From sequence record NC_130088.1: a stretch of DNA of 49,713 nt. The stretch is one strand, 5' to 3'. Numbering within the stretch: the first letter of the stretch is position 1; each line of letters begins with the position of its first letter. The stretch is from a phage. Shown here in pieces: positions 1-42,321 of the stretch. The notes below the pieces were generated by a model. It had not been told where the DNA came from. It made no database searches and saw nothing but the letters and a program-made list of their open reading frames with translations. The position numbers and the translations under genes were made by a program.

Positions 1-17
1 TGCAACGCCAAAAGATA

Positions 18-40
18 ACCCGCCTTGCGCGGGTTTTTTT
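18..40 (+). terminator. Rho-independent terminator-like hairpin (ACCCGCC..GCGCGGG) plus T-run
   Basis: GC-rich dyad followed by TTTTTTT; near-identical hairpin recurs at 16233-16257. Confidence 0.55.
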
Positions 41-46
41 GTGTCT

Positions 47-68
47 GTAATTTAGCTGTAATTTAGCT
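47..68 (+). repeat. Perfect tandem duplication of an 11-bp unit GTAATTTAGCT (x2) upstream of the small terminase gene
   Basis: Direct reading: 47-57 and 58-68 identical; a related single-copy context occurs near 14117. Confidence 0.8.
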
Positions 69-100
69 ATAATCATGCCTCAACAATGGAGGATTCTATT

Positions 101-636: not shown

Positions 637-2208
637 ATGTTGATTTGGGAAGATTTAACAAAACTTGAAAAGCTGGCTATTAAGGAATTAAGCACACACG
701 ATTTTGATACTTTCGTTAAAATCTGGTTCCCGATCCAGCAGGGAGAAAAATGGATTCCTAACTGGCACCACCTTTATATTGCAAGGGCAATTGATGAAAT
801 TATTGAAGGTGTGCGCAAAGATACCATTTTTAACGTAACGCCAGGTTCAGGCAAAACAGAATTACTTTCGATCCACTTTCCGCCTTATTCATATTTGAAA
901 TTGAACAAGGTGCGAAATCTGAATATTTCGTTTGCTGATACACTGGTTAAACGTAACAGCAAGCGTGTGCGCGATCTGGTTAACTCGCGAGAATGGCAAG
1001 AGCTTTACCCCGCAAAAACTGGTACAAGCAAGGATGATGAATTCCAGATCCTTAATGACGCTGGCAAAGTTCGCCTGGAAATGATTAGTAAATCAATGGG
1101 CGGTCAGATTACTGGTAGTCGTGGCGGTTACATCACTCCAGGCGTTTATTCAGGTTGTGTGACGCTTGATGATCCAGAAAAGCCGGATGATATGTTTTCG
1201 AAGGTGAAACGTGAGCGCGGTCAAATGATCGCAAAGAACACAATTCGATCACGTCGCGCACATTCAGAAACGCCGATTATCGTTATTCAGCAGCGTCTAC
1301 ACGCGCAGGATATGACATGGTTTCTGATGAATGGCGGAATGGGTATTGAATTTGATCAGATATCAATTCCGGCGATGGTTACAGAGGAATACGGGAAATC
1401 GCTTCCTGATTGGTTACAGCCTCATTTTGAAAAAGATGTGCTTTCGTCTGAATACATCGTTATTGACGGCGTGAAGTATTATTCTTTCTGGCCTAGCAAG
1501 GAAAGCATTCATGATCTTAAAGCGCTACGCGATGCGGATTTGTACACGTTCCTTTCTCAGTATCAGCAAGAGCCAATTGCTCTTGGCGGTAACGCAATTA
1601 ACGTTGGATGGTTCCAGTATTACGGAACCGGAGAAAAATCAACGATGCCAAAACCGGATCGCTTTGATTATACGTTTATTACAGCAGATACCGCTCAGAA
1701 AGAAGGTGAGCTAAACGACTACAGCGTTTTATGTTATTGGGGCATGTTCAAAGGCCGTATATATTTTATTGACGGTGTGCGCGGAAAATGGGAAGCGCCA
1801 ATGTTAGAAACACAGTTTAAAGCGTTTGTTAAACAGTGCTGGAACCGTAACAAAGAATGCGGAAACTTGCGTAAAATTTACGTGGAAGATAAAGCGAGCG
1901 GTACAGGTTTGATCCAGAATTGCCGCAAAGCATTTCCGATAGAAATTACGCCAGTGCAACGCGATAAAGACAAAGTAACGCGCTGCATGGACGCTCAGCC
2001 AGTGATCAAGAATGGTTATGTTGTATTGCCTGAATCGCATCACATGCTTGCTGAATTTCTGGCAGAGGCGGCGGCATTCACTTATGATGATAGCCATCCT
2101 CATGATGATATTATGGATAACCTTTTTGATGCTGTTAATATTGAGCTTAACCTTGCTGATAATGCGGTTGATAGAATGAAGCGTTTAGCTGGATTAGCGA
2201 AGCGTTAA
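637..2208 (+). CDS. terL: Terminase large subunit
   Basis: About 520 aa with N-terminal P-loop-like VTPGSGKTE, acidic nuclease-like C-terminal half, position before portal. Confidence 0.8.
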   Translation: MLIWEDLTKLEKLAIKELSTHDFDTFVKIWFPIQQGEKWIPNWHHLYIARAIDEIIEGVRKDTIFNVTPGSGKTELLSIHFPPYSYLKLNKVRNLNISFADTLVKRNSKRVRDLVNSREWQELYPAKTGTSKDDEFQILNDAGKVRLEMISKSMGGQITGSRGGYITPGVYSGCVTLDDPEKPDDMFSKVKRERGQMIAKNTIRSRRAHSETPIIVIQQRLHAQDMTWFLMNGGMGIEFDQISIPAMVTEEYGKSLPDWLQPHFEKDVLSSEYIVIDGVKYYSFWPSKESIHDLKALRDADLYTFLSQYQQEPIALGGNAINVGWFQYYGTGEKSTMPKPDRFDYTFITADTAQKEGELNDYSVLCYWGMFKGRIYFIDGVRGKWEAPMLETQFKAFVKQCWNRNKECGNLRKIYVEDKASGTGLIQNCRKAFPIEITPVQRDKDKVTRCMDAQPVIKNGYVVLPESHHMLAEFLAEAAAFTYDDSHPHDDIMDNLFDAVNIELNLADNAVDRMKRLAGLAKR

Positions 2209-2221
2209 TGTGTAAAATCAA

Positions 2222-2247
2222 AGGCTGGAATATTCCGGCCTTTTTTA
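2222..2247 (+). terminator. Imperfect hairpin GGCTGGAAT/ATTCCGGCC plus T-run
   Basis: Dyad plus TTTTTT; near copy of the hairpin at 5894-5916. Confidence 0.4.
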
Positions 2248-2261
2248 TTATGGGGGTATTT

Positions 2262-3557
2262 ATGAGCGACAAGGTAAAGGCCATTACTAAAGAAGATGGT
2301 TACAACGAAATTTTCGGATCTAAAGATGGAACGTTTAGGCCAAATGCTTTTTACATGCAAAGTGCGGCATTTAAAACGTTATCGCAATTTTATGAAGAAG
2401 ATGGAATGGCGCGGCGCATTGTCGATGTTATTCCAGAAGAAATGGTGACGCCTGGTTTTAAAGTTGACGGCGTGAAAAATGAAAAGTCTTTTAAATCGCG
2501 CTGGGATGAATTGCGATTAAACGCTAAAATTATTGATGCGCTTTCATGGTCGCGTTTATTTGGCGGTTCTGCAATTCTTGCTGTTGTTGCTGATAACAGA
2601 ATGCTGAAATCACCTGTAAAGCCTGGTGCACAACTTGAAGATATTCGCGTATATGATCGCTATCAGATCACCATTCAGGAACGTGAAACTAATGCGCGGA
2701 GTGTTCGTTACGGTGAGCCGAAACTTTATAAGATCTCACCTGGCGGAGATATACCGGAATTCTTTGTTCATTACTCGCGTATTTGCATCATTGATGGTGA
2801 GCGCGTATCTAATGAAAAACGCCGTCAAAATGATGGTTGGGGCGCAAGCATTTTAAACAAGCGTTTGATTGAGGCGATTGTTGATTATAACTATTGCCAG
2901 GAATTAGCAACTCAATTGCTACGCCGAAAACAACAAGCAGTATGGAAAGCGCGTGATCTGGCTTTGATGTGCGACGATGAAGAAGGGCGCTATGCGGCGC
3001 GTTTGCGTTTGGCTCAGGTTGATGACGAAAGCGGAGTTGGTAAGGCAATTGGTATTGATGCCACCGATGAAGAATATGAGGTTCTCAATTCTGACGTTTC
3101 CGGCGTTCCAGATTTCTTGCAGGAAAAGATTGATCGAATTGTTGCACTAACTGGCATTCATGAAATCATCCTCAAAAATAAGAACACTGGCGGCGTTTCA
3201 GCGAGTCAAAACACGGCGCTAGAGACTTTCTATAAGTTAATTGATCGCAAGCGCGGAGAGGATTACAAGCCGATTCTTGAATTCCTTTTGCCGTTCATGA
3301 TCTCAGAAGCGGAATGGTCGATTGAATTCGAGCCGTTAAGCGTTCCGAGTGATAAGGATAAAGCTGAAATCATGGCTAAAAACGTTGAGTCAATCGTTAA
3401 GCTGAAAGCAGAGCAAGCGATCGATCTTAAAGAAACGCGAGATACTTTGCGATCAATCTGCCCTGACATTAAAATTAGTGATGGTGACAACATTGAACTA
3501 CCAGATCCAGAAGAACAGGAACCGGAACCAGGAACGGAGGAATTAAACAATGAATGA
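2262..3557 (+). CDS. Portal protein
   Basis: About 430 aa, directly downstream of terL, acidic C-terminus; start moved to ATG after GGGGG SD. Confidence 0.75.
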   Translation: MSDKVKAITKEDGYNEIFGSKDGTFRPNAFYMQSAAFKTLSQFYEEDGMARRIVDVIPEEMVTPGFKVDGVKNEKSFKSRWDELRLNAKIIDALSWSRLFGGSAILAVVADNRMLKSPVKPGAQLEDIRVYDRYQITIQERETNARSVRYGEPKLYKISPGGDIPEFFVHYSRICIIDGERVSNEKRRQNDGWGASILNKRLIEAIVDYNYCQELATQLLRRKQQAVWKARDLALMCDDEEGRYAARLRLAQVDDESGVGKAIGIDATDEEYEVLNSDVSGVPDFLQEKIDRIVALTGIHEIILKNKNTGGVSASQNTALETFYKLIDRKRGEDYKPILEFLLPFMISEAEWSIEFEPLSVPSDKDKAEIMAKNVESIVKLKAEQAIDLKETRDTLRSICPDIKISDGDNIELPDPEEQEPEPGTEELNNE

Positions 3558-5408: not shown

Positions 5409-5897
5409 ATGGCTCAGATTTCAGCAAGTTATCATGTTGCAATGGCTCGCGCCTTGCCTGGTCAAGTTTCCGACACTTCCGCGTATAACATCGACGGAGC
5501 TTGTGTTCTTGAGAATGCAGCAGGCAATCAGAATAAGCCTGTTTTTGTTGGTGTGGCGGTCCAGCATGGCGGCGTTGACGCCATGGGCAATAAGCTGATT
5601 AAGCCGATGGCGGCAAGCGGCAAGGCTTACGGCGTTGCTATTCGATCCAACTTCCAGACCACATCTAAAGATGGTCGCATGGTTTATGAAGCTGGTAGCG
5701 GAATTAACGTAATGACTAAAGGGCGCGTTTGGATGTTATCTGTAGAGTCGGAAGCGCCAGCATTCAAAACAGCTATCAAACTTGATGATTCAGGACAGGT
5801 TGATTTAACGTCTGGATTAATTGAAACCACTTGGATCGCAACTGGAGACTTTACGGAATTCCAAGGTCTAAAACTCGTTGAGGTTCAACTGGTATAA
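5409..5897 (+). CDS. Head-module protein, paralog A (possible decoration/structural protein)
   Basis: 162 aa; shares blocks (YNIDG, GRVW/GRIW, C-terminal VQL) with the next gene. Confidence 0.45.
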   Translation: MAQISASYHVAMARALPGQVSDTSAYNIDGACVLENAAGNQNKPVFVGVAVQHGGVDAMGNKLIKPMAASGKAYGVAIRSNFQTTSKDGRMVYEAGSGINVMTKGRVWMLSVESEAPAFKTAIKLDDSGQVDLTSGLIETTWIATGDFTEFQGLKLVEVQLV

Positions 5898-5916
5898 TAA
5901 TAAGGCCGGATTATTC
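5894..5916 (+). terminator. Perfect hairpin GGCCGGATTATTCCGGCC plus T-run
   Basis: 18-bp palindrome followed by TTTT. Confidence 0.6.
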
Positions 5917-5940
5917 CGGCCTTTTATATATGGTGGTTTT

Positions 5941-6381
5941 ATGTCTGATTACGGTTCTATAATAGGTATAGTTGAAAATGGGTGCTTGGTAGATTCAAGC
6001 CTTTATAATATAGATGGCTCGCCAGTTATGGATGTTTCAGCCGTGATAGGTAAGGCCGTATGTGTTGATCGCATATCTTGCGGTTACAAAATAATCAGCC
6101 ACAATTTTAATGAAAACTCAAAGCATTACGGAATCGTTACGCGTGATTATATTGATTTTTGCAAAGAATATTACGACGCCGGAGATCCTGTTAACGTAAT
6201 AACTCATGGTCGAATTTGGGTAATCACTCAGGACGAACAGGATATTCCATCGTATAAAGATCCTGTTTTTGTTAAAGACAATGGCTCTATATCAACAAGT
6301 GGATTTCCTACTAGTTGGTTTTTTACTGGCGAATACGTAAGATATTCACACGGATATATTTTACTATCAGTTCAGTTGTAG
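5941..6381 (+). CDS. Head-module protein, paralog B
   Basis: 146 aa from ATG after GGTGG SD; paralogous to 5409-5897. Confidence 0.45.
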   Translation: MSDYGSIIGIVENGCLVDSSLYNIDGSPVMDVSAVIGKAVCVDRISCGYKIISHNFNENSKHYGIVTRDYIDFCKEYYDAGDPVNVITHGRIWVITQDEQDIPSYKDPVFVKDNGSISTSGFPTSWFFTGEYVRYSHGYILLSVQL

Positions 6382-6430
6382 CGTGCTAACACAAAAAACA
6401 CTTGAACGTTTAACAAAAAATGCTATATTA

Positions 6431-6454
6431 AAGCCGTTATTGTGACGGCTTTTC
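6431..6454 (+). terminator. Hairpin GCCGT..ACGGC plus TTTT
   Basis: Dyad plus T-run before capsid gene. Confidence 0.4.
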
Positions 6455-6470
6455 TATGAGGGGAAATATT

Positions 6471-8600: not shown

Positions 8601-9033
8601 TTATTCGATCCGAGAATTTCATGGCAATGTTGATAAATGGATCGAGCAAGTAGAAAGCGGATTGAATGACGTGATTCAGATTTTTGGTGAAAAGGTTCAC
8701 GGCGCATTAGTTGATATTGCGCCAGTGGACACAGGACGATTCAAAGCCAATATGCAGATCACAGCAAACAAGCCGCCTCTTTACGCGCTCAATCAATATG
8801 ATCCTGATGGTGAGAAAACAAAGGCGGAAGGTCGCAGGACGCTTTATGCTTTATTGCATGGCGGCGGCGCTATTAAATCAATATACTTTTCCAATATGCT
8901 GATTTACGCTAATGCTCTTGAATATGGTCATTCAAAGCAAGCGCCAGCGGGGGTATTTGGTATTGTTGCGATCCGGTTGCGCTCTTACATGGCGGAAGCG
9001 ATAAGGGAGGCGAGAAAGAAAAATGCACTATGA
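8593..9033 (+). CDS. Head-tail joining / tail attachment protein (by synteny)
   Basis: Overlapping start, SD GGAGGG. Confidence 0.4.
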   Translation: MADYSIREFHGNVDKWIEQVESGLNDVIQIFGEKVHGALVDIAPVDTGRFKANMQITANKPPLYALNQYDPDGEKTKAEGRRTLYALLHGGGAIKSIYFSNMLIYANALEYGHSKQAPAGVFGIVAIRLRSYMAEAIREARKKNAL

Positions 9034-9412
9034 ATTATCTGTTGCGGCAAGAATGGCGCTGGCTCAAGAATACGAAAGCGAATATATGATCGCTTATGAA
9101 AACGTTGAATTTACGCCACCAAAAGGCGGCGGCATTTGGCTGAAATATGACTACAAAGAAGCAGATACAATAATTCATGATCTGAAAAGGAAATGCATTA
9201 GTTATATTGGAATGGTTCAGATCGGAATTGAATTCCCGCCAGGATCAGGAATTGATAAGGCTCGCAAGCTGGCAAAAAATATTGCTGATTTCTTTGAAGA
9301 TGGTAAAATGCTTGCGAATGGTTATATTTCAGAAGGTGCGAAAGTGCATCCAGTTCAGAAATCAGAATCAGGCTGGTTTTATCCAGTACGTTTTTATGTT
9401 CGTTACGATTAA
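9023..9412 (+). CDS. Tail completion protein (by synteny)
   Basis: 129 aa, SD GGGAGG. Confidence 0.4.
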   Translation: MHYELSVAARMALAQEYESEYMIAYENVEFTPPKGGGIWLKYDYKEADTIIHDLKRKCISYIGMVQIGIEFPPGSGIDKARKLAKNIADFFEDGKMLANGYISEGAKVHPVQKSESGWFYPVRFYVRYD

Positions 9413-9426
9413 TAAAGGGGGCTATT

Positions 9427-10086
9427 ATGCACTTACCTAACGGAGCACAGATTTTTATTGAGAATACTCGCGGCTCAGAAATCAAAGCAACAGCAATCAG
9501 CAACGCAACAGATCCGGTGTTTACCGCGTCTAATACTGGCGGATTGAAAAAAGGTGATTATGTGATTGTCACTGTATCAACATGGGGTAAACTTCTTGAT
9601 CGTGTACTGCGAGTTAAAGAGGTTAGCGATAACACAAGTTTCACGCTTGAAGGTATCGACACCACTGATGAAAACGTTTTTCCGTCCGGCGCTACTGGTA
9701 GCGTTATGAAAATTGAATCATGGACAGAGATCCCATGCGTACAGGACTTGGGGCAGGACGGCGGCGAGCAGCAGTATTACAATTACCAGTGCTTGAGCGA
9801 TGACCAGGAGCAGCAGTTACCAACCTATAAAAGCGCGGTGTCACTGACTTACACCTTTGCGCATGAGTACGATAATCCGATTTATCCGCTCTTGCGTAAG
9901 GCTGACGAATCCGGCGACGTTAAAGCATTGCGCATGTATGTACCAAAAGCAAAAGAAATGCGACTTTGGGCTGGTGTGCTTTCTTTCAACGAGATCCCAC
10001 AAACGGCGGTAAACGAAATGGAAACCGTTTCTTTGTCGGTATCCCTGAAAGGTCGCTTTACTTTCTTGCCTTCTACTCAGGCTTAA
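9427..10086 (+). CDS. Major tail protein (probable)
   Basis: 219 aa, precedes chaperone G/GT and tape measure; followed by terminator. Confidence 0.55.
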   Translation: MHLPNGAQIFIENTRGSEIKATAISNATDPVFTASNTGGLKKGDYVIVTVSTWGKLLDRVLRVKEVSDNTSFTLEGIDTTDENVFPSGATGSVMKIESWTEIPCVQDLGQDGGEQQYYNYQCLSDDQEQQLPTYKSAVSLTYTFAHEYDNPIYPLLRKADESGDVKALRMYVPKAKEMRLWAGVLSFNEIPQTAVNEMETVSLSVSLKGRFTFLPSTQA

Positions 10087-10090
10087 TTTA

Positions 10091-10117
10091 AAGGGGCGCA
10101 TTGCGTCCCTTTTTTAT
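10091..10117 (+). terminator. Terminator hairpin with embedded TTGCGT -35 and TAATAT -10 17 bp downstream
   Basis: GGGGCGC..GCGTCCC plus T6; TTGCGT-17-TAATAT. Confidence 0.5.
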
Positions 10118-10157
10118 TTGATGTAATATCACCTCAATATTTAACCACTCAGGAGAA

Positions 10158-10478
10158 ATGACAATGGCTAAAATGAAATTGACTCTTGCCCCGCTTCCAG
10201 ATTTCAAACTTCCAGTTAAATTTGTATTGCCGGATGGTAACGAGCAAAAAATTGTGTTTACCGTTAAGCATAAAAAGGCCAGCGAGATTCAAGAGCTTTA
10301 CCAGAAAGAAGGTATTAAAGATTCTGAATTCATCATGAATGTTGCCGTGGGTTGGGATCTGGAAGAAGAATTCAACGAAGAAAACGCGCAACTGTTAGTT
10401 GATTATTATCCTGGCGCGGCGCTGGCTCTTATGGGATCTTATTTAAGTGCGCTGGCAGGGCAACGCGTAAAAAACTAA
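10158..10478 (+). CDS. Tail assembly chaperone (lambda G-like)
   Basis: 106 aa acidic protein immediately upstream of tape measure gene. Confidence 0.65.
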   Translation: MTMAKMKLTLAPLPDFKLPVKFVLPDGNEQKIVFTVKHKKASEIQELYQKEGIKDSEFIMNVAVGWDLEEEFNEENAQLLVDYYPGAALALMGSYLSALAGQRVKN

Positions 10479-10795
10479 AAAGGGCGGTTTATCTGTATTA
10501 TCAGAAACCGCCGACAGATGCAGAATTGCAAGCCGTAGGATTAACCCGCGCAGACTATGAAGGAGAAGATCCGCCAGAGGTCATATTTGATGAAAGTATG
10601 ATGCAATCATGGGATATATTTTGCGCGATGGGTACACAGTGGCGTAGTGCTGGCGCTGGTGCTTACGGTTTTGATTATAATGTTTTGCCTATGTTATTCA
10701 GAATCTATAAAATAGACGATGAAGAAATGGCCTTAAATGACTTGCGCATCATGGAACAAAAAGCACTGGAAATGATGCAAGCAAATAACAAATAA
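10158..10795 (+). CDS. Tail assembly chaperone GT-like fusion made by -1 programmed frameshift at A_AAA_AAC (10469-10475)
   Basis: -1 frame is open from before the slippery heptamer through 10795; no independent SD/ATG for the downstream ORF. Confidence 0.5.
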
Positions 10796-10818
10796 AGCGC
10801 CTACGGGCGCTTTTTTTA
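10795..10818 (+). terminator. Hairpin AGCGCC..GGCGCT plus T7
   Basis: Dyad plus T-run. Confidence 0.5.
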
Positions 10819-10832
10819 TGAGGGTAAAATAT

Positions 10833-13742
10833 ATGGCTGAACAATTTGCAGGTTTAACACTTGGCGTGAACGTCGAGCAGTTAAACAAAGCTGTTAAGTC
10901 GTTACAGGACTTTAAAAAAGCCAACGACGAAGCAAAGAAAGGCGTTGAGAGCTTTGTTAACGAGGAAGAAGTTGCAAAGCAAAAGGCTAAACAGTTAGCC
11001 GATGAATTAGCGAAACAGAGCCGTGAATTTAAGAGAATTCAGGATACAGTTGATCCGACAGCGGCAAAAATGCGCAAGCTGTCACAGGCAGCAAGTGATC
11101 TTGATAAGCTATGGCAAAAAGGGATTGTACCTGATGAAACATTCTTCCAATTAGGGAGCATGTTGGAAACTCAGATCAGTAAATTGGAGCGCAACAAAAA
11201 GGCGCTTACGGAAGAAGGCCGCGCAGCGTTGGAAGAATCACGCGCCAAAGAGAAAGCAGCGGCAGCAGGAAAGAGCTTCCTTGCGGATCTAGAATCACAA
11301 GCGGCGGCTCTTGGAAAAACCAAATCTGAATTACTGGAAATGAAAGCGGCGCAACTTGGCGTAAGTGCTCAGGCCGCACCATTCATTGCACAGCTTAAAG
11401 CGCAAGAAAAACAGATGAAGTTAACCGGAATTAGCGCAGGGCAATATAACCAGGCAATGCGAATGCTTCCGGCTCAGATCACTGACGTTGTAACGTCGCT
11501 GGCTTCCGGTATGCCTGTTTGGTTGGTTGCAATCCAGCAGGGTGGACAGATTAAAGATTCTTTCGGCGGTGTTGGTAATACGTTTAAAGCGCTGTTGTCG
11601 TTTCTGAATCCGGTAAACGTTGGCCTTGCCGCATTAGCCGTTTCAATGGGTGCTCTTGTTAAGGCTGGTTATGATGCGTATAAATCGCAACGTGACTTGC
11701 AAGAGGCGTTGGTGCTGACTGGTGGATATGCTGGCACAAGCGGCGCACAGTTCGATAAGCTGGCGCAGGACATTAATAACAGCACTGATGCGACGATAGG
11801 AAACATCCGATCCATCGCAACAGAGCTTGCAAAATCCGGCAAATTCACTATTGATCAGATTAAATCGATCACAAAGACTACCGCTCAGTGGTCAACGGTA
11901 ACGGGTGAATCAAGCGATAAGATTACTGGTTACTTTGATAAGATTGCTGGCGATCCGGTTAAAGGTCTTGCAGAGCTAAACGAGCAATTCAACTTTTTAA
12001 GCGAAGGGCAGTTAACTTATATTGCAGACCTGGAGAAAACGAAAGGAAAAACGGAAGCAGTGACGGCGGCGACAAAGTTATTTGCTGATGTTATGGATCA
12101 GAGATTAGCTAAACTGGCAGACTCCGCAACGCCATTAGAAAAGATGTGGACGAACATTAAAAAATGGGCGTCAGATGCTTGGGGATGGGTTGGAGATCAC
12201 ACGCTGGCGGCGCTTAACCTGATTATCGACGTTGTAGCCGGAACGGTTGAGCAGGTTAGATACTTGCTTAATCAGGGTGATATTCTCATTGGTGAATTTA
12301 TTGTGTCGGCAACTAAGACGATGCAAAAAATACCAGGTCTTGATAATGTTGGCGATTCTGTAATTTCGCAACAACAGAAGATCATTAATAACGCCAAAGA
12401 GAACAACAAGGAGTTATTAAAATCAATTGCCGAACGTAACGAGCGAGTCAAAAAAGGCGAGCAGGGTTACATTGACATGATGAAAAATCGTGCGGCGGTT
12501 GAACAGCAATATGCTACTAAAACAAAGGAGAATGTCAGGAAGGAAGCCGAGGAATTAGCCAAACGCGATAAAAAGCAAAAGGCTGAAAAAGTTAAGGTAT
12601 CGGCTGGCGATAAGCTGGAAGAACAATATCAGCGTGATATCCTGGCGTTAGAAACTCAATTAAGAGTTTTGAAAGAGCATAAGACGATCACTGATACCAT
12701 AAGCCAGCAACGTAAATCTTTATGGGCTGAACAGGCTAAAATTCAGATTCTGCAAGAAGCCTCAACAAAGCGGCAACTTACTGATGAAGAAAAAAGCATT
12801 TTAGCCAACAAAGATAAGATCCTGGCGATGGCTGAACAAAAAGCTATTTTAGGAGATCAGATTGTTGCACAAACGCGACTTAATCAGTTGCAAGATAGCT
12901 CAATCAAGTTTATCCAGCAGCAGAAAGCAGCAACAGAAGCACTAGCCAAAACCAGAGGGTTAAGTGAACGTGAAGCAGCAAGAGCGGCGGAACGTGCAAA
13001 GGTTGAGGCTGATTATCTTGCCAAAGGAGGCAAGGAAGGAGATCCGCAACTCACCGCAATGATGGATGCATTAGACAATCGCTATAAAGAGGAAGATGCT
13101 AAACGTGCTGATTGGTTGGCTGGCGCTAAAAATGCCTTTGCGGAGTACGGCGAGGAAGCAATGAACATGTATGATAATATCGGCAACATTGCGAGCCAGG
13201 CGCTAAACGGCCTATCGCAACAAATGGCTGATTTTTTGACTACTGGACAAGCAAACTTCAAAGACTTTGCAAAATCGATCATTAGCCTTATTGTTCAGAT
13301 GATCACAAAGATGGTTATCTTCAATAGCATTTCCGGCATGATGGGCGGCTCAACCTGGACGCTTGGAAGCCTTTTAAGCGGTGCTGGTTTTGCTGGCGGC
13401 GGTTATACTGGCGACGGTGGCAAATATGATCCGGCTGGCGTTGTTCATAAGGGTGAGTTTGTTTTCACCAAAGAGGCAACGCAAAGAATCGGAGCTAAAA
13501 ACCTGTATCGCATGATGCGAGGTTATGCAAACGGCGGTCAAGTAGGAAGCGTGACAACTGGCGGCGCTGGCATCAATCGCGGTGCATCGCAATTTGCATT
13601 TGGTGATATCAACGTTAACATTGACAACGGTCAAGATCCAAAAGGGATGGAAACTGGTATCAAGATGATTTTCACTGAAATGATTCAACGGTCATGCTCG
13701 CAAGGTGGCGAGGTTTATAATTTTGTTCATGGGAGGGCTTAA
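10833..13742 (+). CDS. Tail tape measure protein
   Basis: About 970 aa, long coiled-coil Ala/Lys/Glu/Gln-rich, Gly-rich C-terminus, position after G/GT. Confidence 0.85.
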   Translation: MAEQFAGLTLGVNVEQLNKAVKSLQDFKKANDEAKKGVESFVNEEEVAKQKAKQLADELAKQSREFKRIQDTVDPTAAKMRKLSQAASDLDKLWQKGIVPDETFFQLGSMLETQISKLERNKKALTEEGRAALEESRAKEKAAAAGKSFLADLESQAAALGKTKSELLEMKAAQLGVSAQAAPFIAQLKAQEKQMKLTGISAGQYNQAMRMLPAQITDVVTSLASGMPVWLVAIQQGGQIKDSFGGVGNTFKALLSFLNPVNVGLAALAVSMGALVKAGYDAYKSQRDLQEALVLTGGYAGTSGAQFDKLAQDINNSTDATIGNIRSIATELAKSGKFTIDQIKSITKTTAQWSTVTGESSDKITGYFDKIAGDPVKGLAELNEQFNFLSEGQLTYIADLEKTKGKTEAVTAATKLFADVMDQRLAKLADSATPLEKMWTNIKKWASDAWGWVGDHTLAALNLIIDVVAGTVEQVRYLLNQGDILIGEFIVSATKTMQKIPGLDNVGDSVISQQQKIINNAKENNKELLKSIAERNERVKKGEQGYIDMMKNRAAVEQQYATKTKENVRKEAEELAKRDKKQKAEKVKVSAGDKLEEQYQRDILALETQLRVLKEHKTITDTISQQRKSLWAEQAKIQILQEASTKRQLTDEEKSILANKDKILAMAEQKAILGDQIVAQTRLNQLQDSSIKFIQQQKAATEALAKTRGLSEREAARAAERAKVEADYLAKGGKEGDPQLTAMMDALDNRYKEEDAKRADWLAGAKNAFAEYGEEAMNMYDNIGNIASQALNGLSQQMADFLTTGQANFKDFAKSIISLIVQMITKMVIFNSISGMMGGSTWTLGSLLSGAGFAGGGYTGDGGKYDPAGVVHKGEFVFTKEATQRIGAKNLYRMMRGYANGGQVGSVTTGGAGINRGASQFAFGDINVNIDNGQDPKGMETGIKMIFTEMIQRSCSQGGEVYNFVHGRA

Positions 13743-14089
13743 TGTTAGATGAATTTACCTGGTGTACGCAGATTCAGAGCGGCGGCGGTGTAATGACAAC
13801 TACCAATAACGACAGGGAAGTTGTTTTTGGTAACGGCTATCGCCAAAAGGCATCTTCTGGATTTAACACGGAAAGGAGGGAGTTTTCTATTGTATATGTT
13901 GGCAATGATTATAAGGCTGTTAAAGCATTTATGACGGATCACAGGTTAAAGCCTTTCTTGTGGAAAACTCCAGACGGTAGTTTTGGGTTGTTTACCGTAA
14001 AAGCCGGAACGGTTGGACTAACACCAATTAGCCGAACCGCTCAGGAAGTCAAAGCAACTTTTACGGAAGAATTTACATCAATGCGATAA
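13742..14089 (+). CDS. Minor tail protein M (lambda gpM-like)
   Basis: 115 aa; blocks FGNGYRQ, FLWKTPDG and TFTEEF resemble lambda M as recalled from memory. Confidence 0.75.
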   Translation: MLDEFTWCTQIQSGGGVMTTTNNDREVVFGNGYRQKASSGFNTERREFSIVYVGNDYKAVKAFMTDHRLKPFLWKTPDGSFGLFTVKAGTVGLTPISRTAQEVKATFTEEFTSMR

Positions 14090-14093
14090 ATCA

Positions 14094-14117
14094 AAGCCGC
14101 CTTGTGCGGCTTTTTTA
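14094..14117 (+). terminator. Terminator hairpin GCCGCC..GCGGC plus T6 with embedded TTGTGC -35 and TATAAT 17 bp downstream
   Basis: Dyad plus T-run; TTGTGC-17-TATAAT. Confidence 0.5.
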
Positions 14118-14155
14118 TTGTGTCTATAATGGTGCTTTATTGGAGGGCATAAAAT

Positions 14156-14914
14156 ATGGCTGAAAAACAGATCAAAAAGACTTTTGAAAATTGTCTGCAA
14201 TCGCTTTTTCCTGGTGAGATTATTACTCTTATCGAGGTTGACGGCACGAAATTTGGTGCTCAGGTTTACCGATTTCACGCTGAAAATATCGCATACACGC
14301 CAGAGGAATTAATGCAAGCGCGTGAAACTGGAATATTGCCTCCGAAAGATATTAAGTTTCGCGGTGAAATTTACGGGGCGCGGCCTTTTGGCATCACAGG
14401 GATCGGATTTACCAGTAACGGGAAAGCAGAAAAACCACAATTAGCGCTTTCTAATTTAGATAGCCGTGTATCCGCTTTAATCAGATCCTATAATGGCATG
14501 ATGCAAGCAAAGGTTACAATATGGGTTACATCGGCTGATTTAATTGATGATGAAGGTAATGTGGAGGACGGCGCATATAGAAAGTTGGTTTATTATATTG
14601 AGCGTCCGAATTTTGTTAATCAGACAGTTGCACGTTTTGAATTAACATCACCTTATGATATGGATGGAATTATGATCCCGCCACGACTTACGCAAAGCGT
14701 TTGTTATTGGGCGCAACGTGGATGGTATAGAAGCGGTAAAGGTTGCGGATATAACGGATCTGCAATGTTCGATAAAGATAATAATCCTGTAACAGATCCG
14801 AGTAAGGATTATTGCGCCGGAACGGTAACAGCTTGCAAATTGCGTTTTGGTCCTGAAAATGAATTAGATTTCGGCGGAGCGGCTGTTGCTTCACTGTTGA
14901 GGAAAAACCAATGA
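14156..14914 (+). CDS. Minor tail protein L (lambda gpL-like)
   Basis: 252 aa, C-terminal cysteine cluster as in Fe-S containing L proteins; synteny. Confidence 0.75.
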   Translation: MAEKQIKKTFENCLQSLFPGEIITLIEVDGTKFGAQVYRFHAENIAYTPEELMQARETGILPPKDIKFRGEIYGARPFGITGIGFTSNGKAEKPQLALSNLDSRVSALIRSYNGMMQAKVTIWVTSADLIDDEGNVEDGAYRKLVYYIERPNFVNQTVARFELTSPYDMDGIMIPPRLTQSVCYWAQRGWYRSGKGCGYNGSAMFDKDNNPVTDPSKDYCAGTVTACKLRFGPENELDFGGAAVASLLRKNQ

Positions 14915-15633
14915 TTAATGCAAAAATTAAACTTGAAATTATGCGACACGCTAATGATGTTTATCCTAATGAATGTTGCGGCCTGGTAACTCAAAAATCA
15001 CGCGTCCAGAAATATCACCGGATCGATAACGTAAGCAAAGAGCCGGAAAAGCATTTTGAAATGGACGCGACACAATACGCAGAGGTTGAGGATAGCGGCG
15101 CGGATATTATCGCCATAGTTCACAGCCACACAGGGGAAGGGGCAACAACAATCCCTAGCGCACACGATTTGTGCATGTGTGATGAAACTGGTGTTTCTTG
15201 GGTTATCGTTTCGATACCAGAAGGAGACATGAGAATCATAGAGCCACAATCACGGCCTTTGATTGGTCGCCCCTGGTCGCTTGGTGCTTATGATTGTTGG
15301 GGTCTTATTATGGCATGGCATAAAGAGCAAGGCGTGATCCTGAATGATTTCCGCAAGCAGTATGAATGGTGGAAGCCGGAACATGGCGAAAACCTTTATC
15401 AAGATAATTACTTGAAAGAAGGTTTTATAGAAACAGGTGAACCGCCAAAGCCAGGTGATATGATCATAATGCAGTTGCAAGCGCCAGTATGGAACCACGC
15501 CGGAATTTATTTAGGCAACAATCAACTATTGCATCATGCATTCGGCAAGTTGTCGCGAGTTGATTTATATTCTGGATGGTATCAGGAACACACAACAATG
15601 ATTTGCAGACATAAGGATCTGAAAAATGAATAA
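14911..15633 (+). CDS. Tail assembly protein K (MPN/JAMM plus NlpC/P60-like)
   Basis: HSHT..H..D metal motif and Cys/His peptidase-like C-terminal half; ATGA overlap with L. Confidence 0.75.
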   Translation: MINAKIKLEIMRHANDVYPNECCGLVTQKSRVQKYHRIDNVSKEPEKHFEMDATQYAEVEDSGADIIAIVHSHTGEGATTIPSAHDLCMCDETGVSWVIVSIPEGDMRIIEPQSRPLIGRPWSLGAYDCWGLIMAWHKEQGVILNDFRKQYEWWKPEHGENLYQDNYLKEGFIETGEPPKPGDMIIMQLQAPVWNHAGIYLGNNQLLHHAFGKLSRVDLYSGWYQEHTTMICRHKDLKNE

Positions 15634-16225
15634 GGTTATCAACGTAAAATTATCAGGCTCATTAGGTCGCCGCTTTGGTGTTTTCCATAAATACGCCGTT
15701 GAGAGTTGGCCTGAATGCGTAAGGGCATTATCAAGCCAGGTTGAAGGATTCAAAGAATTTATGCAAAGTGAAATCGGATCAAAGATGAAATTTGCAATTT
15801 TCGTTGATGGTAAAAATGTTGGTCTGAATAATGATAGCGCATGGCGTTGCGCTCGCGAGGTTCGAATTGTTCCGGTTCCAACAGGTTCAAAAAGCGGCGG
15901 TTTATTTCAGGTTGTTTTGGGTGCTGTTATTATGGTTACTGCGTTTTTCACTGGTGGTGCATCGCTGGCGGCTATGGGTGCTTTTTCATCGGCTGCATTT
16001 ATGATGGGTGGCGCAATGGCTCTTGGCGGAGTAATGCAGATGATTAGCCCACAACAAGGAGGAATGAGAATGGAGAGCCAAAGCGCAGCAAATAAACCAT
16101 CATATGCGTTTGGTGGTGCTGTTAATACTACGGCGGCAGGTTATCCGGTTCCGTTGCCTTATGGTTATAGAACTGTTGGAGGCGCTATATTCAGTGCTGG
16201 CTCATACGCAGAAGATAAACTTTAA
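15626..16225 (+). CDS. Tail assembly protein I (lambda gpI-like)
   Basis: 199 aa, Gly/Ala-rich hydrophobic C-terminal half, overlaps K. Confidence 0.65.
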   Translation: MNKVINVKLSGSLGRRFGVFHKYAVESWPECVRALSSQVEGFKEFMQSEIGSKMKFAIFVDGKNVGLNNDSAWRCAREVRIVPVPTGSKSGGLFQVVLGAVIMVTAFFTGGASLAAMGAFSSAAFMMGGAMALGGVMQMISPQQGGMRMESQSAANKPSYAFGGAVNTTAAGYPVPLPYGYRTVGGAIFSAGSYAEDKL

Positions 16226-16232
16226 TTATATA

Positions 16233-16257
16233 AACCCGCCGTTGCGCGGGTTTTTTG
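16233..16257 (+). terminator. Terminator hairpin with embedded TTGCGC -35 and TACAAT 17 bp downstream
   Basis: CCCGCC..GCGGG plus T6; TTGCGC-17-TACAAT. Confidence 0.55.
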
Positions 16258-16306
16258 TTACATGTACAATGGCAGCACGTTTAAATAGCACAAAAGGTTA
16301 AAAGCT

Positions 16307-19300
16307 ATGATCAAAAATATGATAACTGGCAGTAAGGGCGGTTCTTCAAAGCCTCATACACCTGTTGAAATGGAAGATAACCTAATTTCAATTAACAGGA
16401 TCAGAATTCTTTTAGCTGTTTCTGATGGTGAAGTTGATCCAGACTTTTCATTGAAAGATTTATATTTTGATGACGTTCCGGTTATGAATCATGATGGTTC
16501 ACTAAACTTTCAGAATGTTAAGGCAGAATTCAGACCAGGGACGCAAACGCAGGATTATATTCAGGGGTTTACTGATACAGCCAGCGAAATTACAGTTGCT
16601 CGCGATCTGACAGCCGCAACGCCTTATATTATTTCCGTGACTAATAAAAACCTTTCCGCGATCCGTATTAAAATTTTAATGCCGCGAGGGTTTACGCAGG
16701 AGGATAACGGAGATTTAACAGGCGTTCGCGTTGAATATGCAGTTGATATGGCTATTGATGGCGCTGAATATAACGAGGTTTTGCATGATGTGATCGAAGG
16801 TAAAACAATGAGCGGTTACGACAGAAGCCGCAGAATTGATTTACCTGCTTTCAATGAGCGTGTTTTATTGCGCGTTCGTCGCCTGACAGACAGCACGTCA
16901 GCGAGAGTTACCGATCTGATTAAAATGCAAAGCTATGCGGAAGTTGTAGACGCTAAATTTCGTTACCCATTGACTGGTTTAGTATATGTTGAGTTTGACA
17001 GCGAATTATTCCCTAATGCGTTGCCGAATATCAGCATTAAGAAAAAATGGAAAATCATTAATGTTCCGTCAAATTATGATCCTATTTCCCGCACTTATTC
17101 AGGGTCATGGGATGGAACATGGAAAAAGGCATGGAGTAATAACCCTGCTTTTGTTCTGTATGATTTGATTACCAATCAGCGTTACGGACTCGATCAAAGA
17201 GAATTAGGCATCGCGCTTGATAAATGGAGCATTTACGAATGTGCGCAGTATTGCGATCAGATGGTTCCAGACGGTAAAGGCGGAACAGAGCCGCGCTATC
17301 TTTGCGACGTTGTGATCCAGAGCCAGGTAGAAGCGTATCAGCTTGTGCGTGATATTTGTTCAATCTTCCGTGGAATGAGCTTTTGGAATGGTGAGAGCCT
17401 TTCAATCGTGATCGATAAGCCTCGCGATGCGTCATACATCTTTACTAATGACAACGTGGTTAACGGCGATTTCAGCTACACGTTTGCCAGCGAGAAAAGC
17501 ATGTACACGCAATGCAACGTGACTTTCGACGACGAACAAAACATGTATCAACAGGACGTTGAGGGTGTTTTTGAAACAGAGGCAGCGTTACGTTTTGGAT
17601 ATAACAGTACGTCAATAACTGCTATCGGTTGCACACGACGCAGCGAAGCCAACCGCCGTGGACGCTGGATTTTAAAAACCAACGTCAAGAGCACAACAGT
17701 AAACTTTGCTACTGGCCTGGAAGGTATGATCCCAACGGTAGGCGATGTAATTGTTGTTTCGGATAACTTCTGGTCAAGCGCTTTGACGCTGAATCTATCA
17801 GGTCGATTGATGGAGGTTAACGGGTTGCAGGTGTTCACGCCGTTTAAGGTTGACGCAAGAGCAGGTGATCGCATTCTGGTAAATAAGCCGGATGGTAAGC
17901 CAGTTGGTCGAACCATTGCGCGTGTGAGTGATGACGGTAAAACGCTAACGCTAAACACGACATTTGGCTTTGACGTTCAGCCGGATACCATTTTTGCAAT
18001 TGAGCGAACAGATATTGCACAGCAACGATATGTTGTAACCGGAATCACTAAGGGTGACGGTGATGAAGAATTTACCTACAACATAACGGCTGTTGAATAC
18101 GATCCTAACAAATACGATGAAATTGATTATGGCGTAAACATTGATGACCGTCCGACTTCAATCGTGCAGCCTGACATTTTGCCAGCACCGCAAAACGTCA
18201 AGATCGAATCTTATTCGCGAGTTGTTCAGGGTGCGAGCGTGGAAACAATGCACGTTTCATGGGATAAGGTTGAATATGCAAGCCTTTATGAAATGCAGTG
18301 GAGAAAAGACAATGGCAACTGGAACAACACGCCGCGCACAGCCAACAAGGAAACGGAAGTTGAAGGTATTTACGCAGGAAACTATCACGTAAGGGTTAGA
18401 TCTGTTGCAGCTAATGGTTCAGCGTCTGGATGGTCAGCAATTGTTAGCGCCGGATTAACTGGCAAAGTTGGCGAGCCAGAAAAGCCGATTAACCTTACAG
18501 CGTCTGACAATGAGGTTTTCGGCATTCGCGTAAAATGGGGTATGCCGGAGGGTTCTGGTGATACAGCTTACATAGAGTTGCATCAAGCGCCGAACGGTGC
18601 TGATGGTCATCCTATTGTTGATGAAGCAACGCTCTTAACGCTGATACCGTTCCCGCAATATGAGTATTGGCATTCAATACTGCCAGCGGGTCATGTTGTC
18701 TGGTACAAGGCAAGGGCAGTTGACAAAATCGGGAATGTGTCTGATTGGACTGACTTTGTGCGCGGCATGGCTTCCGACGATACGAGCATTATCACGGATC
18801 ATATTAAGGTCGATATTGAAAATTCTGATGGATATAAGTGGTTACAGGAAAACGCAATAAAGGCCAATGATAAGATCCACAGCACAGCGGAATCAGTGAT
18901 TGAAAACGCATTAGCGAATGATAAAGATGTGCGACGTATGCGAGTTGAAAACGGCAAGCGTAAAGCGGAGTTCTTGCAATCGCTGAAACTCATTGCAGAC
19001 GAAACAGAAGCAAGGGTAACGCAGGTCACTCAAATGAGTGCGCAATTTGACGAGAAATTAACGGCTCAAAATAGCGAATTGAGAGAGGTAATTGCTAACA
19101 GCACTGAAACCATTAGCCAAAGGATTGATCAGCTTACAGCTACGTTTGAGAGCGAAATTGATGGTGTTAAGCAGGATATCAAAGCACAGATAACTGATGT
19201 TAACCAGGCAATCACCAATGAAGCGGAAGCGCGAGCGTCAGCGGATAGGGCGTTATCAACTCAAATTGGTGATACCCAATCAGCGGTTAACCAGAAACTT

Positions 19301-25541: not shown

Positions 25542-25582
25542 AATTTCACCTCATAGCATTTTTTGTTAAAATAGGTCATGTA

Positions 25583-26687: not shown

Positions 26688-27296
26688 TTAGCAATCAGTG
26701 CTATCGACGGAAATCACAACGCGTTTCTTCTGATTGGCTTCCTTTGCTTTGCGCCGTTCTTCTTTCGCCTTATCGCGTTCAGCTTTGCGCCGCGCTTTCT
26801 CCTTCTCGCGTTCTTCTGGACTCATAGACCGCAACGGATCGTAAGGCCGCACAAATCCTCTTGCTTCCGCCTCCTCTTTGGTTACAAATCGCATCAGCTT
26901 TCTGTTGCTGCAACGATTCTCTAATGGCTTGCCGTTATTATCAAATTTGATATCTGGACGGCAATATGAAGCGCGGAAGCCGTTAAAACCTTTGCGTCTG
27001 TAATCTTTCTGGATCAGTTCAGCGCCTTTAGTTGAAATCATGCCGCGCTCTTTCCATCCCCATACTGTTTTAAGGTTAACGCCAATTTCACGCGCCAGGG
27101 CAGCGCAACCGCCATAAGCGCTAACCACTTCATCAAGCCTAGCTTTTAATCCTGCCCTTACTTCTTCCTTTAGTACCAGATAACCGCTAACAGGTGCGCG
27201 GCGCTTCCTGTCTTTACCACGCCTTACGCCGTTGTTACCATTGATTGTGCGTTTGTCGATTTCTCCCGTTGAGGCCGCAATTTTGATTTCGCTCAT
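26688..27296 (-). CDS. HTH DNA-binding protein with basic Lys/Arg/Glu-rich C-terminal tail
   Basis: HTH-like segment GGCAALAREIGVNLKTVWGW; AGGTGA SD; divergent from helicase gene. Confidence 0.45.
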   Translation of the reverse strand: MSEIKIAASTGEIDKRTINGNNGVRRGKDRKRRAPVSGYLVLKEEVRAGLKARLDEVVSAYGGCAALAREIGVNLKTVWGWKERGMISTKGAELIQKDYRRKGFNGFRASYCRPDIKFDNNGKPLENRCSNRKLMRFVTKEEAEARGFVRPYDPLRSMSPEEREKEKARRKAERDKAKEERRKAKEANQKKRVVISVDSTDC

Positions 27297-27307
27297 ATTT
27301 TCACCTA

Positions 27308-27349
27308 TAGCACTTTTTGCTAAAACTATTGAGTAAGTTTGTGTATGAT
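27308..27349 (+). promoter_or_regulatory. Conserved 19-bp box plus TATGAT (class-2 unit) upstream of helicase
   Basis: TAGCACTTTTTGCTAAAAC, 21-nt gap, TATGAT. Confidence 0.5.
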
Positions 27350-27384
27350 ATGGTGCAAATGGCATTTAGTCAAAAGGATAAGTA

Positions 27385-31092: not shown

Positions 31093-31142
31093 CACTTTTT
31101 GTTAAAACCCGCTACGGCGGGTTTTGTATTATGTGCTTAACG
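31090..31142 (+). promoter_or_regulatory. Conserved 19-bp box plus hairpin plus TATTAT (class-2 unit)
   Basis: Box begins at the TAG stop; CCCGC..GCGGG hairpin in spacer. Confidence 0.5.
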
Positions 31143-42290: not shown

Positions 42291-42321
42291 TACCCCATCG
42301 AAACGAAACGAGGAAAACACA

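Follow-up and report, generated by a model that had tools for sequence, protein, structure and literature searches.

Predicted stop and start signals in the tail genes of Devorator

The window (the whole stretch of DNA that we analyzed, 49,713 nucleotides) is sequence record NC_130088.1, from Citrobacter phage Devorator, which is a T1-like phage (Drexlerviridae, Tlsvirus). Three of the boundaries between gene modules in its tail region each have a predicted stop signal for transcription and a predicted host-type start signal packed into about 45 bp. These composite units span 10090-10129 (unit 1, before the tape-measure chaperone gene), 14093-14130 (unit 2, before the L-like gene), and 16232-16270 (unit 3, before the J-like gene). 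Each has a GC hairpin, a T6 run, and a TAnnnT hexamer that lies exactly 17 bp past a -35-like hexamer (Table 1).

An earlier interpretation of this DNA, which we will call the sequence-only reading, had described the core layout of the tail-region units as a terminator hairpin, a -35 element in the hairpin, a T-run that serves as the spacer, and then a -10 element, and the sequence is as it stated. It had also assigned the whole -35-like hexamer to the hairpin's 3' arm. This is correct for just the last 2-4 bases of the hexamer (in all four units, if we include a similar element at the window start); in units 2 and 3, the TTG is in the loop and the remaining bases are in the 3' arm, and in unit 1 the TT is in the loop. 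The earlier coordinates did locate the units, but the ends given for units 2 and 3 (14128 and 16265) fall short of the ends of the -10 hexamers.

Table 1. Positions of the composite units, the window-start element, and nearby features in the window
Feature	Position	Strand	Details
Window-start terminator hairpin	17..35	+	before terS; TTGCGC at 25-30, T7 at 34-40; T28 of the TLS annotation
11-bp tandem repeat, CTGTAATTTAG	45..73	+	2.6 copies; ends in conserved TATAAT at 68-73
Unit 1 terminator hairpin, AAAGGGGCGC-ATT-GCGTCCCTTT	10090..10112	+	after major tail protein gene; -14.9 kcal/mol; T42 of the annotation of phage TLS
Unit 1 -35-like hexamer TTGCGT	10101..10106	+	TT in loop, GCGT in 3' arm
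Unit 1 T6 run	10110..10115	+	terminator U-tract and upstream half of 17-bp spacer
Unit 1 -10-like hexamer TAATAT	10124..10129	+	predicted start ~10136
Tape-measure chaperone gene start	10164
Unit 2 terminator hairpin	14093..14113	+	after M-like minor tail gene; -11.6 kcal/mol; T46 of the TLS annotation
Unit 2 -35-like hexamer TTGTGC	14102..14107	+
Unit 2 T6 run	14111..14116	+	terminator U-tract and spacer
Unit 2 -10 hexamer TATAAT	14125..14130	+	PWM rank 17 of 99,356; predicted start ~14137
L-like gene start	14156
Unit 3 terminator hairpin	16232..16253	+	after I-like tail assembly gene; -12.1 kcal/mol; T49 of the TLS annotation
Unit 3 -35-like hexamer TTGCGC	16242..16247	+
Unit 3 T6 run	16251..16256	+	terminator U-tract and spacer
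Unit 3 -10 hexamer TACAAT	16265..16270	+	PWM rank 21 of 99,356; predicted start ~16277
Family direct repeat (degenerate copy), ATAGCACAAAAGGTTAAAA	16285..16303	+	DR8 of TLS
J-like gene start	16307

Terminators and the chance expectation

Folded as RNA, the four hairpins (those of units 1-3 and the one at the window start) have energies of -10.9 to -14.9 kcal/mol, with z-scores of -2.7 to -4.2, and stems of 7-10 pairs. At all four sites, a co-oriented stop codon lies 3-12 nt upstream and a run of T6-T7 begins at the end of the stem. No Rfam family matches anywhere in the window. There are ten terminators on the + strand within 1-20124. Five other late terminators on this strand (at 2220, 5902, 7464, 7788, and 10794) lead directly into a ribosome-binding site and an ATG. 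Only the TTG-bearing terminators of the late region have an additional 40-55 nt of leader with a -10 box.

The bare motif (TTGNNN, 16-18 bp that contain T5, and TANNNT) is not enriched in the whole genome: there are 4 matches, and the mean across 300 first-order Markov simulations was 4.7. So, the case for these units rests on conditional and comparative tests. All 4 matches are on the coding strand, are intergenic, have a spacing of 17 bp, and lie inside terminator hairpins. The spacer is 17 bp in 4/4 units if the window-start element is counted via TAATTT at 48-53, which is 17 bp from its TTGCGC. The probability of finding TANNNT at exactly 17 bp in 4/4 TTG-bearing terminator hairpins is ~5e-8 (~4e-6 for 16-18 bp). 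The association also holds when the genome's 17 strong hairpins are compared (P = 0.002, Fisher exact test).

The promoter-like elements are modest. The -35-like hexamers match TTGACA at 3/6 positions (TTG only). The -10 hexamers (TAATAT, TATAAT, and TACAAT) carry the T1, A2, and T6 that are invariant for sigma-70. With weighted scoring against a sigma-70 PWM, unit 1 ranks only 172 of 99,356 positions (see Table 1 for units 2 and 3). A generic promoter scan of the window called none of the units, but the scan demands 4/6 matches in the -35, so it misses all of them and is uninformative here. In the literature that we searched, there was no mapping of transcription start sites, Term-seq, or other mapping of 5' or 3' ends for T1-like phages. 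We infer termination, initiation, promoter strength, and timing at units 1-3 from sequence.

Spacing in related phages

The sequence-only reading had suggested comparing the hexamer spacing across related phages, and this comparison strongly supports the layout: the 17-bp distance from the TTG to the -10 is kept in divergent T1-like phages. TTG-17 bp-TA(T/C/G/A)AAT is retained even where the flanking proteins are only 40-80% identical. The distance is 17 bp in ~27/35 unique upstream regions at site 1 and in 24/30 at site 3; at site 2, it is 17 bp in 17 regions, 16 bp in 4, and 18 bp in 1. (The relatives are phylogenetically related, so these counts overstate the number of independent events.) At site 1, the -35-like hexamer is kept as TTGCG(C/T) in 35 unique relatives, and the -10 at 17 bp may be TAATAT, TAGAAT, TAAAAT, TACAAT, or TATAAT. 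In most other genera, the counterpart of unit 3 has TATAAT at 17 bp. In an IMG/VR-wide scan that allowed a gap of 6-26 between the hairpin and TATAAT, the gap was 14 (which corresponds to the 17-bp spacer) in 36 of the 44 matches.

In contrast to units 1-3, the window-start element is not what had been proposed, which was the same unit with an inserted duplication. Relatives that lack the duplication have the TATAAT at 26 bp from the TTG (versus 37 bp in Devorator, after a strain-specific 11-bp duplication), whereas what stands at 17 bp varies (TAATTT or CAATTT) and is not a conserved hexamer. We consider the window-start element to be a different, -35-less arrangement.

For units 1-3, we think it likely that they are intrinsic terminators fused to modest sigma-70-type promoters, within the same ~45 bp.

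Alternative explanations

Another explanation is that the -10 is a real promoter element but the TTG in the hairpin is there by accident and is not its -35, so that initiation would need no -35 or would rely on some factor from the phage or the host. In ~80 unrelated contexts, the identical hairpin is just a plain terminator, so the TTG in its loop is not diagnostic by itself. A few lineages retain a -10 box without the TTG (L034, L036, and L037, with TACAAT, TATAAT, or TATACT; also the L011 type at site 2, where TTGTGC is at 15 bp), which suggests that contact with a -35 may be dispensable. At the terS site, besides the 26-bp distance, the hairpins of T1 and L048 have no TTG. And most of the other promoters of Devorator have no -35, but have a direct repeat and an extended -10 instead.

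That last arrangement does not fit units 1-3, which have no TGn immediately before the -10. The composition of the spacer also argues against an accidental TTG. The remainder of the stem (2-4), the T-run (5-8), and the tail (6-10) vary, and we observed splits of (3,6,8), (3,7,7), (4,6,7), (3,8,6), (2,6,9), and (2,5,10), but the total is 17. The distance from the end of the stem to the -10 ranges from 13 to 15 while the distance from the TTG stays at 17, so the distance is measured from the TTG and not from the stem end. Furthermore, the hairpin of unit 1 has the opposite polarity (its 5' arm is G-rich) and its sequence is unrelated to that of the other units, and still TTGCG(C/T) is at 17 bp. 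We consider an accidental TTG to be unlikely.

It is very unlikely, in our view, that these are terminators only and that the TAnAAT boxes are just AT-rich leader without promoter function. The bare motif does occur at the frequency expected by chance, and besides the generic scan, two curated annotations call no promoter at these sites: the 2024 re-annotation of TLS has only three intergenic sigma-70 promoters and gives T28, T42, T46, and T49 as terminators only (PMC11447400), and the GenBank record for T1 has terminators at 8322, 22793, and 24972 with no promoter annotated there. However, the columns of the -10 (TA.AAT) and of the TTG are near-invariant while the neighboring spacer tail and leader are variable, and the spacing is fixed despite changes in the length of the T-run. 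Among the ~80 unrelated viral contexts with the identical hairpin and T-run, none has TAnnnT at 17 bp. Also, the two functions are separable in the relatives. In the T1 group, TTGC(A/G)C-17-TAAAAT is kept even though the T-run has decayed, and conversely, in the lineage of L027, L029, L030, and L063, the terminator is kept and the -10 is lost or degraded at sites 1 and 2.

A CUUG tetraloop was also considered as the reason for the TTG in the loop. We rejected it because the loops are 3-6 nt with closing positions that do not pair, and loop size varies while the distance from the TTG to the -10 is constant at 17.

How the units might work

If units 1-3 are fused terminators and promoters, then RNA from the upstream gene would fold into the GC hairpin, and the polymerases would pause at the U6 tract, where some of them would release. 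On the duplex DNA, the host RNA polymerase holoenzyme would recognize a weak -35 made up of the TTG of the loop and the start of the 3' arm. The 17-bp spacer would consist of what remains of the arm, the T-run, and another 6-10 free bases, and TAnAAT would be the -10. Initiation would be ~7 nt downstream of the -10 (the predicted starts in Table 1), and the new transcript would have a 20-30-nt leader that carries the ribosome-binding site. Because this transcript would not include the hairpin, it would escape the unit's own terminator. Each downstream tail module would get attenuated read-through plus a fixed local input. Our best reading is that the predicted restart of transcription serves the chaperone/tape-measure module (unit 1), the L-K-I module (unit 2), and the J module (unit 3). 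The arrangement is kept across the phage family, and it probably re-supplies the distal tail genes with transcripts. We know of no antiterminator for the 20-kb late region, which has ten co-oriented terminators, and the units offer a possible account of how genes distal to these terminators are expressed without one.

A plain sigma-70 promoter leaves the late timing unexplained. To our knowledge, neither a late activator nor an antiterminator is known for T1-like phages.

A more speculative idea, which we doubt, is that the overlap itself is functional: after RNA release at the U-tract, a polymerase would restart ~25 bp downstream without leaving the DNA. A polymerase on the U-tract would already be sitting on the promoter's spacer and could rebind sigma. 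If so, the unit would couple termination to re-initiation, and strong upstream transcription would yield downstream transcripts that lack the hairpin, in a fixed proportion. Under the same idea, the hairpin-embedded promoters, together with direct-repeat sites, could be the early-to-late switch of T1-like phages. As described in PMC6978380, PMC6978322, and PMC9934669, polymerase can remain on the DNA after its RNA has been released at an intrinsic terminator and can restart at a nearby promoter. There, recycling is a general phenomenon, seen in vitro and with single molecules, while in the Devorator units, the predicted promoter overlaps the release site.

Comparison with known systems

Among known systems, the units most resemble the promoter-terminator cassettes called PeSLs (promoter-early stem-loops) in T4-like phages. 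Like the units, PeSLs are intergenic composites in which a sigma-70-type promoter is joined with a stem-loop that acts as a terminator or attenuator, and in one of the five subclasses described, the stem-loop overlaps the -35 box (PMC2839356, PMC4122927). Devorator also has other PeSL-like placements, with a hairpin around the -10, between an upstream element and the -10, or at the start site. PeSLs, which were tested with reporters, drive strong early transcription and have AT-rich DNA upstream; numerous copies occur in hyperplastic regions beside orphan genes, and they are implicated in recombination and in mini-circles (PMC2839356, PMC4122927). In contrast, the Devorator units are predicted elements at three syntenic sites within a conserved siphovirus tail module, and they show no sign of mobility. 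Their -35 is weak, and the spacer is also a canonical U-tract.

We consider it very unlikely that the units are kept mainly as PeSL-like recombination cassettes, whose short common sequences would allow module swaps between co-infecting T1-like phages, with regulation being secondary. The hairpins at the window start and at sites 2 and 3 are nearly identical within one genome, and there is variation next to the units (the C-terminal codons of the major tail protein differ in close relatives beside an identical unit 1, the region upstream of J is replaced in L016 and L017, and site 2 of L027 has gained an HNH gene), but there are only 3-4 copies, which are syntenic and lie between conserved tail genes rather than by orphan genes; we saw no unit-flanked cassettes and no duplicated units around the L027 insertion; and the unit 1 hairpin has the same geometry with an unrelated sequence, which points to function rather than common descent.

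In lambda, there is a single late promoter, and the polymerase is modified once, at pR' (Q antitermination). Lambda and Devorator face the same problem: the host polymerase has to get past terminators to express a long operon of head and tail genes. Unlike lambda, Devorator has no known antiterminator, and transcription appears to be replenished from internal promoters.

T1-like phages (Drexlerviridae) are widespread coliphages and candidates for therapy, and their transcription program is essentially unmapped. The 2024 re-annotation of TLS was unable to establish the organization of the late region (PMC11447400). As summarized there, Roberts et al. (2004) proposed "transcriptons" for the late region of T1, and the TLS paper could not confirm them (PMC11447400). 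In that summary, as in Devorator, Rho-independent terminators divide the late region into modules, with RpoD-type promoters within. By anatomy only, Devorator has a transcripton-type organization, with ten + strand terminators, the promoter-like units at 10101, 14102, and 16242, and a major capsid promoter (6402-6429). The accessible transcripton literature does not state the overlapping geometry of terminator and promoter or its conservation. The units are three conserved and specific candidates for the missing promoters of the tail genes.

The same design is found upstream of an HNH endonuclease gene in an unrelated group of phages (L053, L096, L097, and L106), so it may be a general and compact way to insulate adjacent transcription units. 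If it is general, then it could be used in annotation and as a small part for synthetic biology.

A direct repeat downstream of unit 3

Several late promoters contain a direct-repeat site or have one just downstream. The copy near unit 3 begins 14 nt past the -10, and the ribosome-binding site for the J-like gene falls partly within it; an operator and a 5'-UTR element are both conceivable roles. Candidates for a protein that binds the repeat are the C2-like regulator at 26688-27365 (- strand) and the GntR-like protein at 47204-47701. In the literature that we searched, the repeat's string matched only the TLS paper (PMC11447400). Upstream of J, we also considered and rejected a mini-ORF whose start would be the ATG within TACAATG or TATAATG: it has no ribosome-binding site and is just 4 codons in L027, L029, and L030. 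It is in frame across many lineages because the direct repeat lies at a constant distance of 14 nt.

Promoter-like spacing at terminator hairpins

Over bases 9000-17000, the window was 100% identical to Citrobacter phage vB_CfrD_Devorator (OL539461; Drexlerviridae, Tempevirinae, Tlsvirus) and 95-99% identical to TLS-like phages. The sequences are as the sequence-only reading gave them. All four elements (units 1-3 and the window-start element) have a TTGNGN hexamer, a 17-bp spacer with a run of 6-7 T, and a TAnnnT hexamer. RNA folding gave energies of -10.9 to -14.9 kcal/mol for the hairpins, far lower than for shuffled controls. The hexamer had been placed in the 3' arm, which needs correcting: in the predicted structures, TTG (just TT in unit 1) belongs to the loop and only the rest of the hexamer to the arm. 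Rfam had no families at gathering score across 1-49713.

The bare motif (TTGNNN, 16-18 bp with T5, TANNNT) is not above chance: the genome has 4 occurrences, and Markov simulations gave 4.7 on average. These four matches are all on the coding strand, at exactly 17 bp, and inside intergenic terminator hairpins. With four TTG-bearing terminator hairpins taken as given, TANNNT would lie at 17 bp in every one of them with a probability of about 5e-8 (about 4e-6 if 16-18 bp is allowed). Carrying TTG and having a -10 at 17 bp were associated among the genome's 17 strong hairpins (P = 0.002, Fisher exact test). The late-region terminators at 2220, 5902, 7464, 7788 and 10794 have a ribosome-binding site and start codon directly downstream, so a promoter would not fit; 40-55 nt lie downstream of each TTG-bearing terminator. 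By a position-weighted sigma-70 score, units 2, 3 and 1 ranked 17, 21 and 172 among 99,356 positions, and the TAATTT version of the window-start element ranked 360.

As a control, we scanned viral contigs for the hairpin with its T-run, CCGCCTTGCGCGGGnTTTTT (at least 120 stretches). It was found in many unrelated contigs and appears to be a generic terminator. Among the matches listed, 39 of 123 unique contexts had TAnnnT at exactly 17 bp (35 from T1-like phages and 4 from one unrelated group), and none of the remaining 80 or so did. Specific to T1-like phages, then, is the position of the -10, 17 bp from TTG. The same design, with CCCCGCCTTGCGCGGGG and its T-run followed at 17 bp by TATAAT or TATGAT, is present in an unrelated phage group (L053, at 3397-3439, L096, L097 and L106), where an HNH endonuclease gene and a major head gene flank it. 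Its spacer tails vary, but the spacing stays at 17 bp; similarity between this group's major head protein and Devorator's was not detectable.

Conservation in relatives

For the L-like gene region we compared 38 IMG/VR loci and for terS 11, together with phage T1 and further loci from pattern scans. The 17-bp spacing seen in Devorator is kept in most regions upstream of J and L and downstream of the major tail gene. Upstream of J (proteins 60-99% identical), 24 of 30 unique regions have TTG(C/T)G(C/G), 17 bp, and TA(T/C)AAT. Of the unique regions upstream of L, 17 show a 17-bp spacing, 4 show 16 bp and 1 shows 18 bp; downstream of the major tail gene, the spacing is 17 bp in about 27 of 35. 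When we scanned all IMG/VR contigs for CCGCCTTGCGCGGG followed by TATAAT within 6-26 bases, the gap was 14, equal to a 17-bp spacer, in 36 of 44 stretches; the others had gaps of 23 (n = 6), 22 or 24 (n = 1 each).

In TTG-anchored alignments, TTG and TA.AAT hardly vary, in contrast to the leader and the 3' part of the spacer. Lineages differ in how the spacer is made up, but its stem remainder (2-4 bases), T-run (5-8) and tail (6-10) always sum to 17, and the distance from the stem end to the -10 ranges from 13 to 15, so the conserved distance is counted from TTG. In one 41-kb contig (L006, IMGVR_UViG_2706796530), T8 instead of T6 at units 2 and 3 gives 19-bp spacers. This variant is confined to that contig, whose flanks are otherwise near-identical, and is probably due to homopolymer sequencing errors.

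The two halves are separable. After the major tail gene, the T1 group has a decayed T-run (ccccttattcattt), and the T1 record has no terminator annotation there, yet TTGC(A/G)C-17-TAAAAT is retained. In the lineage of L027, L029, L030 and L063, the terminator is retained; at the position of unit 2, the -10 is lost and the ribosome-binding site abuts the hairpin, at that of unit 1, the -10 is degraded to TTTAAT, and at that of unit 3, it is retained. (L027 also has an HNH endonuclease gene at 5514-6023, inserted between the M-like and L-like genes at the position of unit 2.) The hairpin of unit 1 has the opposite polarity (a G-rich 5' arm) to those of units 2 and 3, so it was not copied from them. 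That its geometry is nevertheless the same argues for selection on function.

At the window start, the 11-bp tandem duplication is confirmed, but the idea that it was inserted into a unit like the others came undone. Relatives without it, including L039 with an identical TerS, have TTGCGC-17-(T/C)AATTT-agc-TATAAT. The conserved box is TATAAT, 26 bp from TTG, and the 17-bp hexamer is not conserved. The hairpin loops TACG (in L048) and TCCG (in T1) lack TTG, and T1 has TGgTAAAAT at the equivalent place. In Devorator, the duplication shifts TATAAT to 37 bp from TTG, so any hairpin-borne -35 would be destroyed. The duplication would be harmless only if the promoter, if real, bypasses the hairpin.

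A probable composite terminator-promoter

In the best-supported reading, the units are intrinsic terminators fused to modest sigma-70 promoters; from the sequence, we infer how they would act. The hairpin would fold in upstream transcripts and cause partial termination on the U-tract. For holoenzyme, TTG and the arm would serve as a weak -35 and TAnAAT as the -10, with the T-run as the spacer. Transcription would start about 7 nt downstream, and the new RNA would not contain the hairpin. The first 20 kb has ten co-oriented terminators, the close relative TLS is without a phage RNA polymerase or sigma factor (PMC11447400), and no antiterminator is among the annotated Devorator products, so internal promoters would be needed for the distal tail genes. 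A plain sigma-70 promoter does not account for late timing. Our literature search found no mapping of 5' or 3' ends for T1-like phages.

The four hairpins correspond to TLS terminators T28, T42, T46 and T49; the TLS re-annotation reported just three intergenic sigma-70 promoters, located elsewhere, and could not confirm the "transcriptons" that, as it describes them, were proposed for T1 (terminator-flanked modules containing RpoD promoters) (PMC11447400). The T1 GenBank record has terminators before terS, L and J and no promoters there. The closest described class is the promoter-early stem-loops (PeSLs) of T4-like phages, which are composite promoter-terminator motifs validated by reporter assays; their stem-loop may overlap the -35 or the -10 or lie between the boxes, upstream or downstream (PMC2839356, PMC4122927). 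In their predicted function the units match PeSLs, but they are not present in many copies, do not lie in hyperplastic regions and show no evident mobility. We consider the units to be probable composite terminator-promoter elements, a kind already known.

Features in the window and in phage T1
Feature	Position	Strand	Remark
Unit 1	10090-10129		between major tail protein and tape-measure chaperone genes (record annotation)
Unit 2	14093-14130		between M-like and L-like minor tail genes (record annotation)
Unit 3	16232-16270		between I-like assembly and J-like tail fibre genes (record annotation)
Window-start element	17-35 (hairpin), 45-73 (repeat)		between last rightward early gene and terS (record annotation)
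Copies of ATAGCACnnnTTGnTAAAA, examples	21600, 27307, 29765, 31089, 42247, 42987, 43621, 45206, 46326, 47698	+	
Copies of ATAGCACnnnTTGnTAAAA, examples	40605, 40095, 39276, 38538, 37125, 36445, 34281, 26704	-	
GC inverted repeats at -10 of candidate direct-repeat promoters	42273-42296, 43009-43028, 46349-46370 and 40069-40046 (-)		
Full terminator hairpin	26680-26650	-	T7 run; TATCAT in loop
Terminator hairpin	31103-31126		fills 19-nt gap between direct repeat and TATTAT
Candidate major-capsid promoter	6402-6429		TTGAAC-16-TGcTATATT; spacer is a reverse-oriented direct repeat
Direct-repeat copy at J gene	16285-16303		14 nt after -10 in most lineages
Direct-repeat copy, tail-fibre region	25553-25571		
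Direct-repeat copies in T1 (L051)	8362 and 18850 (-)		
Doubtful annotated start, portal	2208-2264		
Doubtful annotated start, gp7	5878-5943		

Candidate direct-repeat promoters

A 19-nt direct repeat, ATAGCACnnnTTGnTAAAA, was reported for TLS (PMC11447400). It contains the palindrome TAGCA-N5-TGCTA. Exactly 19 nt after the repeat, 16 of 21 copies in the window, and also 16 of 21 in T1, have a (T/C)AnnnT hexamer, immediately preceded by TGn in 12 of 21 copies in each. With this spacing, the repeat would span about -50 to -32 (centre near -41) of predicted extended -10 promoters without a -35, the place of a class II activator site. They look like a class of activator-dependent promoters, not identified as promoters in the TLS paper (PMC11447400).

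In many of these candidates the -10 is enclosed or directly preceded by a GC inverted repeat, which in two cases, 26680-26650 (-) and 31103-31126, is a full terminator; transcripts from these promoters would miss the 5' arm and escape termination. At the predicted start site of what is likely the major-capsid promoter, a hairpin with T4 (6433-6453) begins, and the T1 region equivalent to 6402-6455 has an annotated promoter and then a terminator.

Several predicted late promoters have a copy of the repeat within the core promoter or shortly after it: the major-capsid candidate, the J gene, the tail-fibre region around 25553, and T1 at 8362 and 18850. Such a copy may act as an operator or in a promoter-competition switch. 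At the T1 position of unit 1, a reversed repeat with its own TGaTAAGAT abuts the + strand TAAAAT, a putative pair of overlapping divergent promoters. Speculatively, these placements of the repeat suggest one DNA-binding protein that would activate early and middle promoters and block late ones.

Upstream of the 789-aa tail fibre gene, at 25635-25578 (- strand), a terminator (GCCCCGCTTCGGCGGGGT and a T-run) has TTGCAT-17-CATAAT directly after it, a candidate promoter that is adjacent rather than overlapping. A reversed direct repeat lies between this -10 and the ribosome-binding site.

Two annotated gene starts put terminator hairpins inside coding sequence: the portal start at 2208 (hairpin 2220-2243) and the gp7 start at 5878 (hairpin 5902-5923). 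More plausible starts are the in-frame ATGs at 2262 and about 5941, each of which has a ribosome-binding site.
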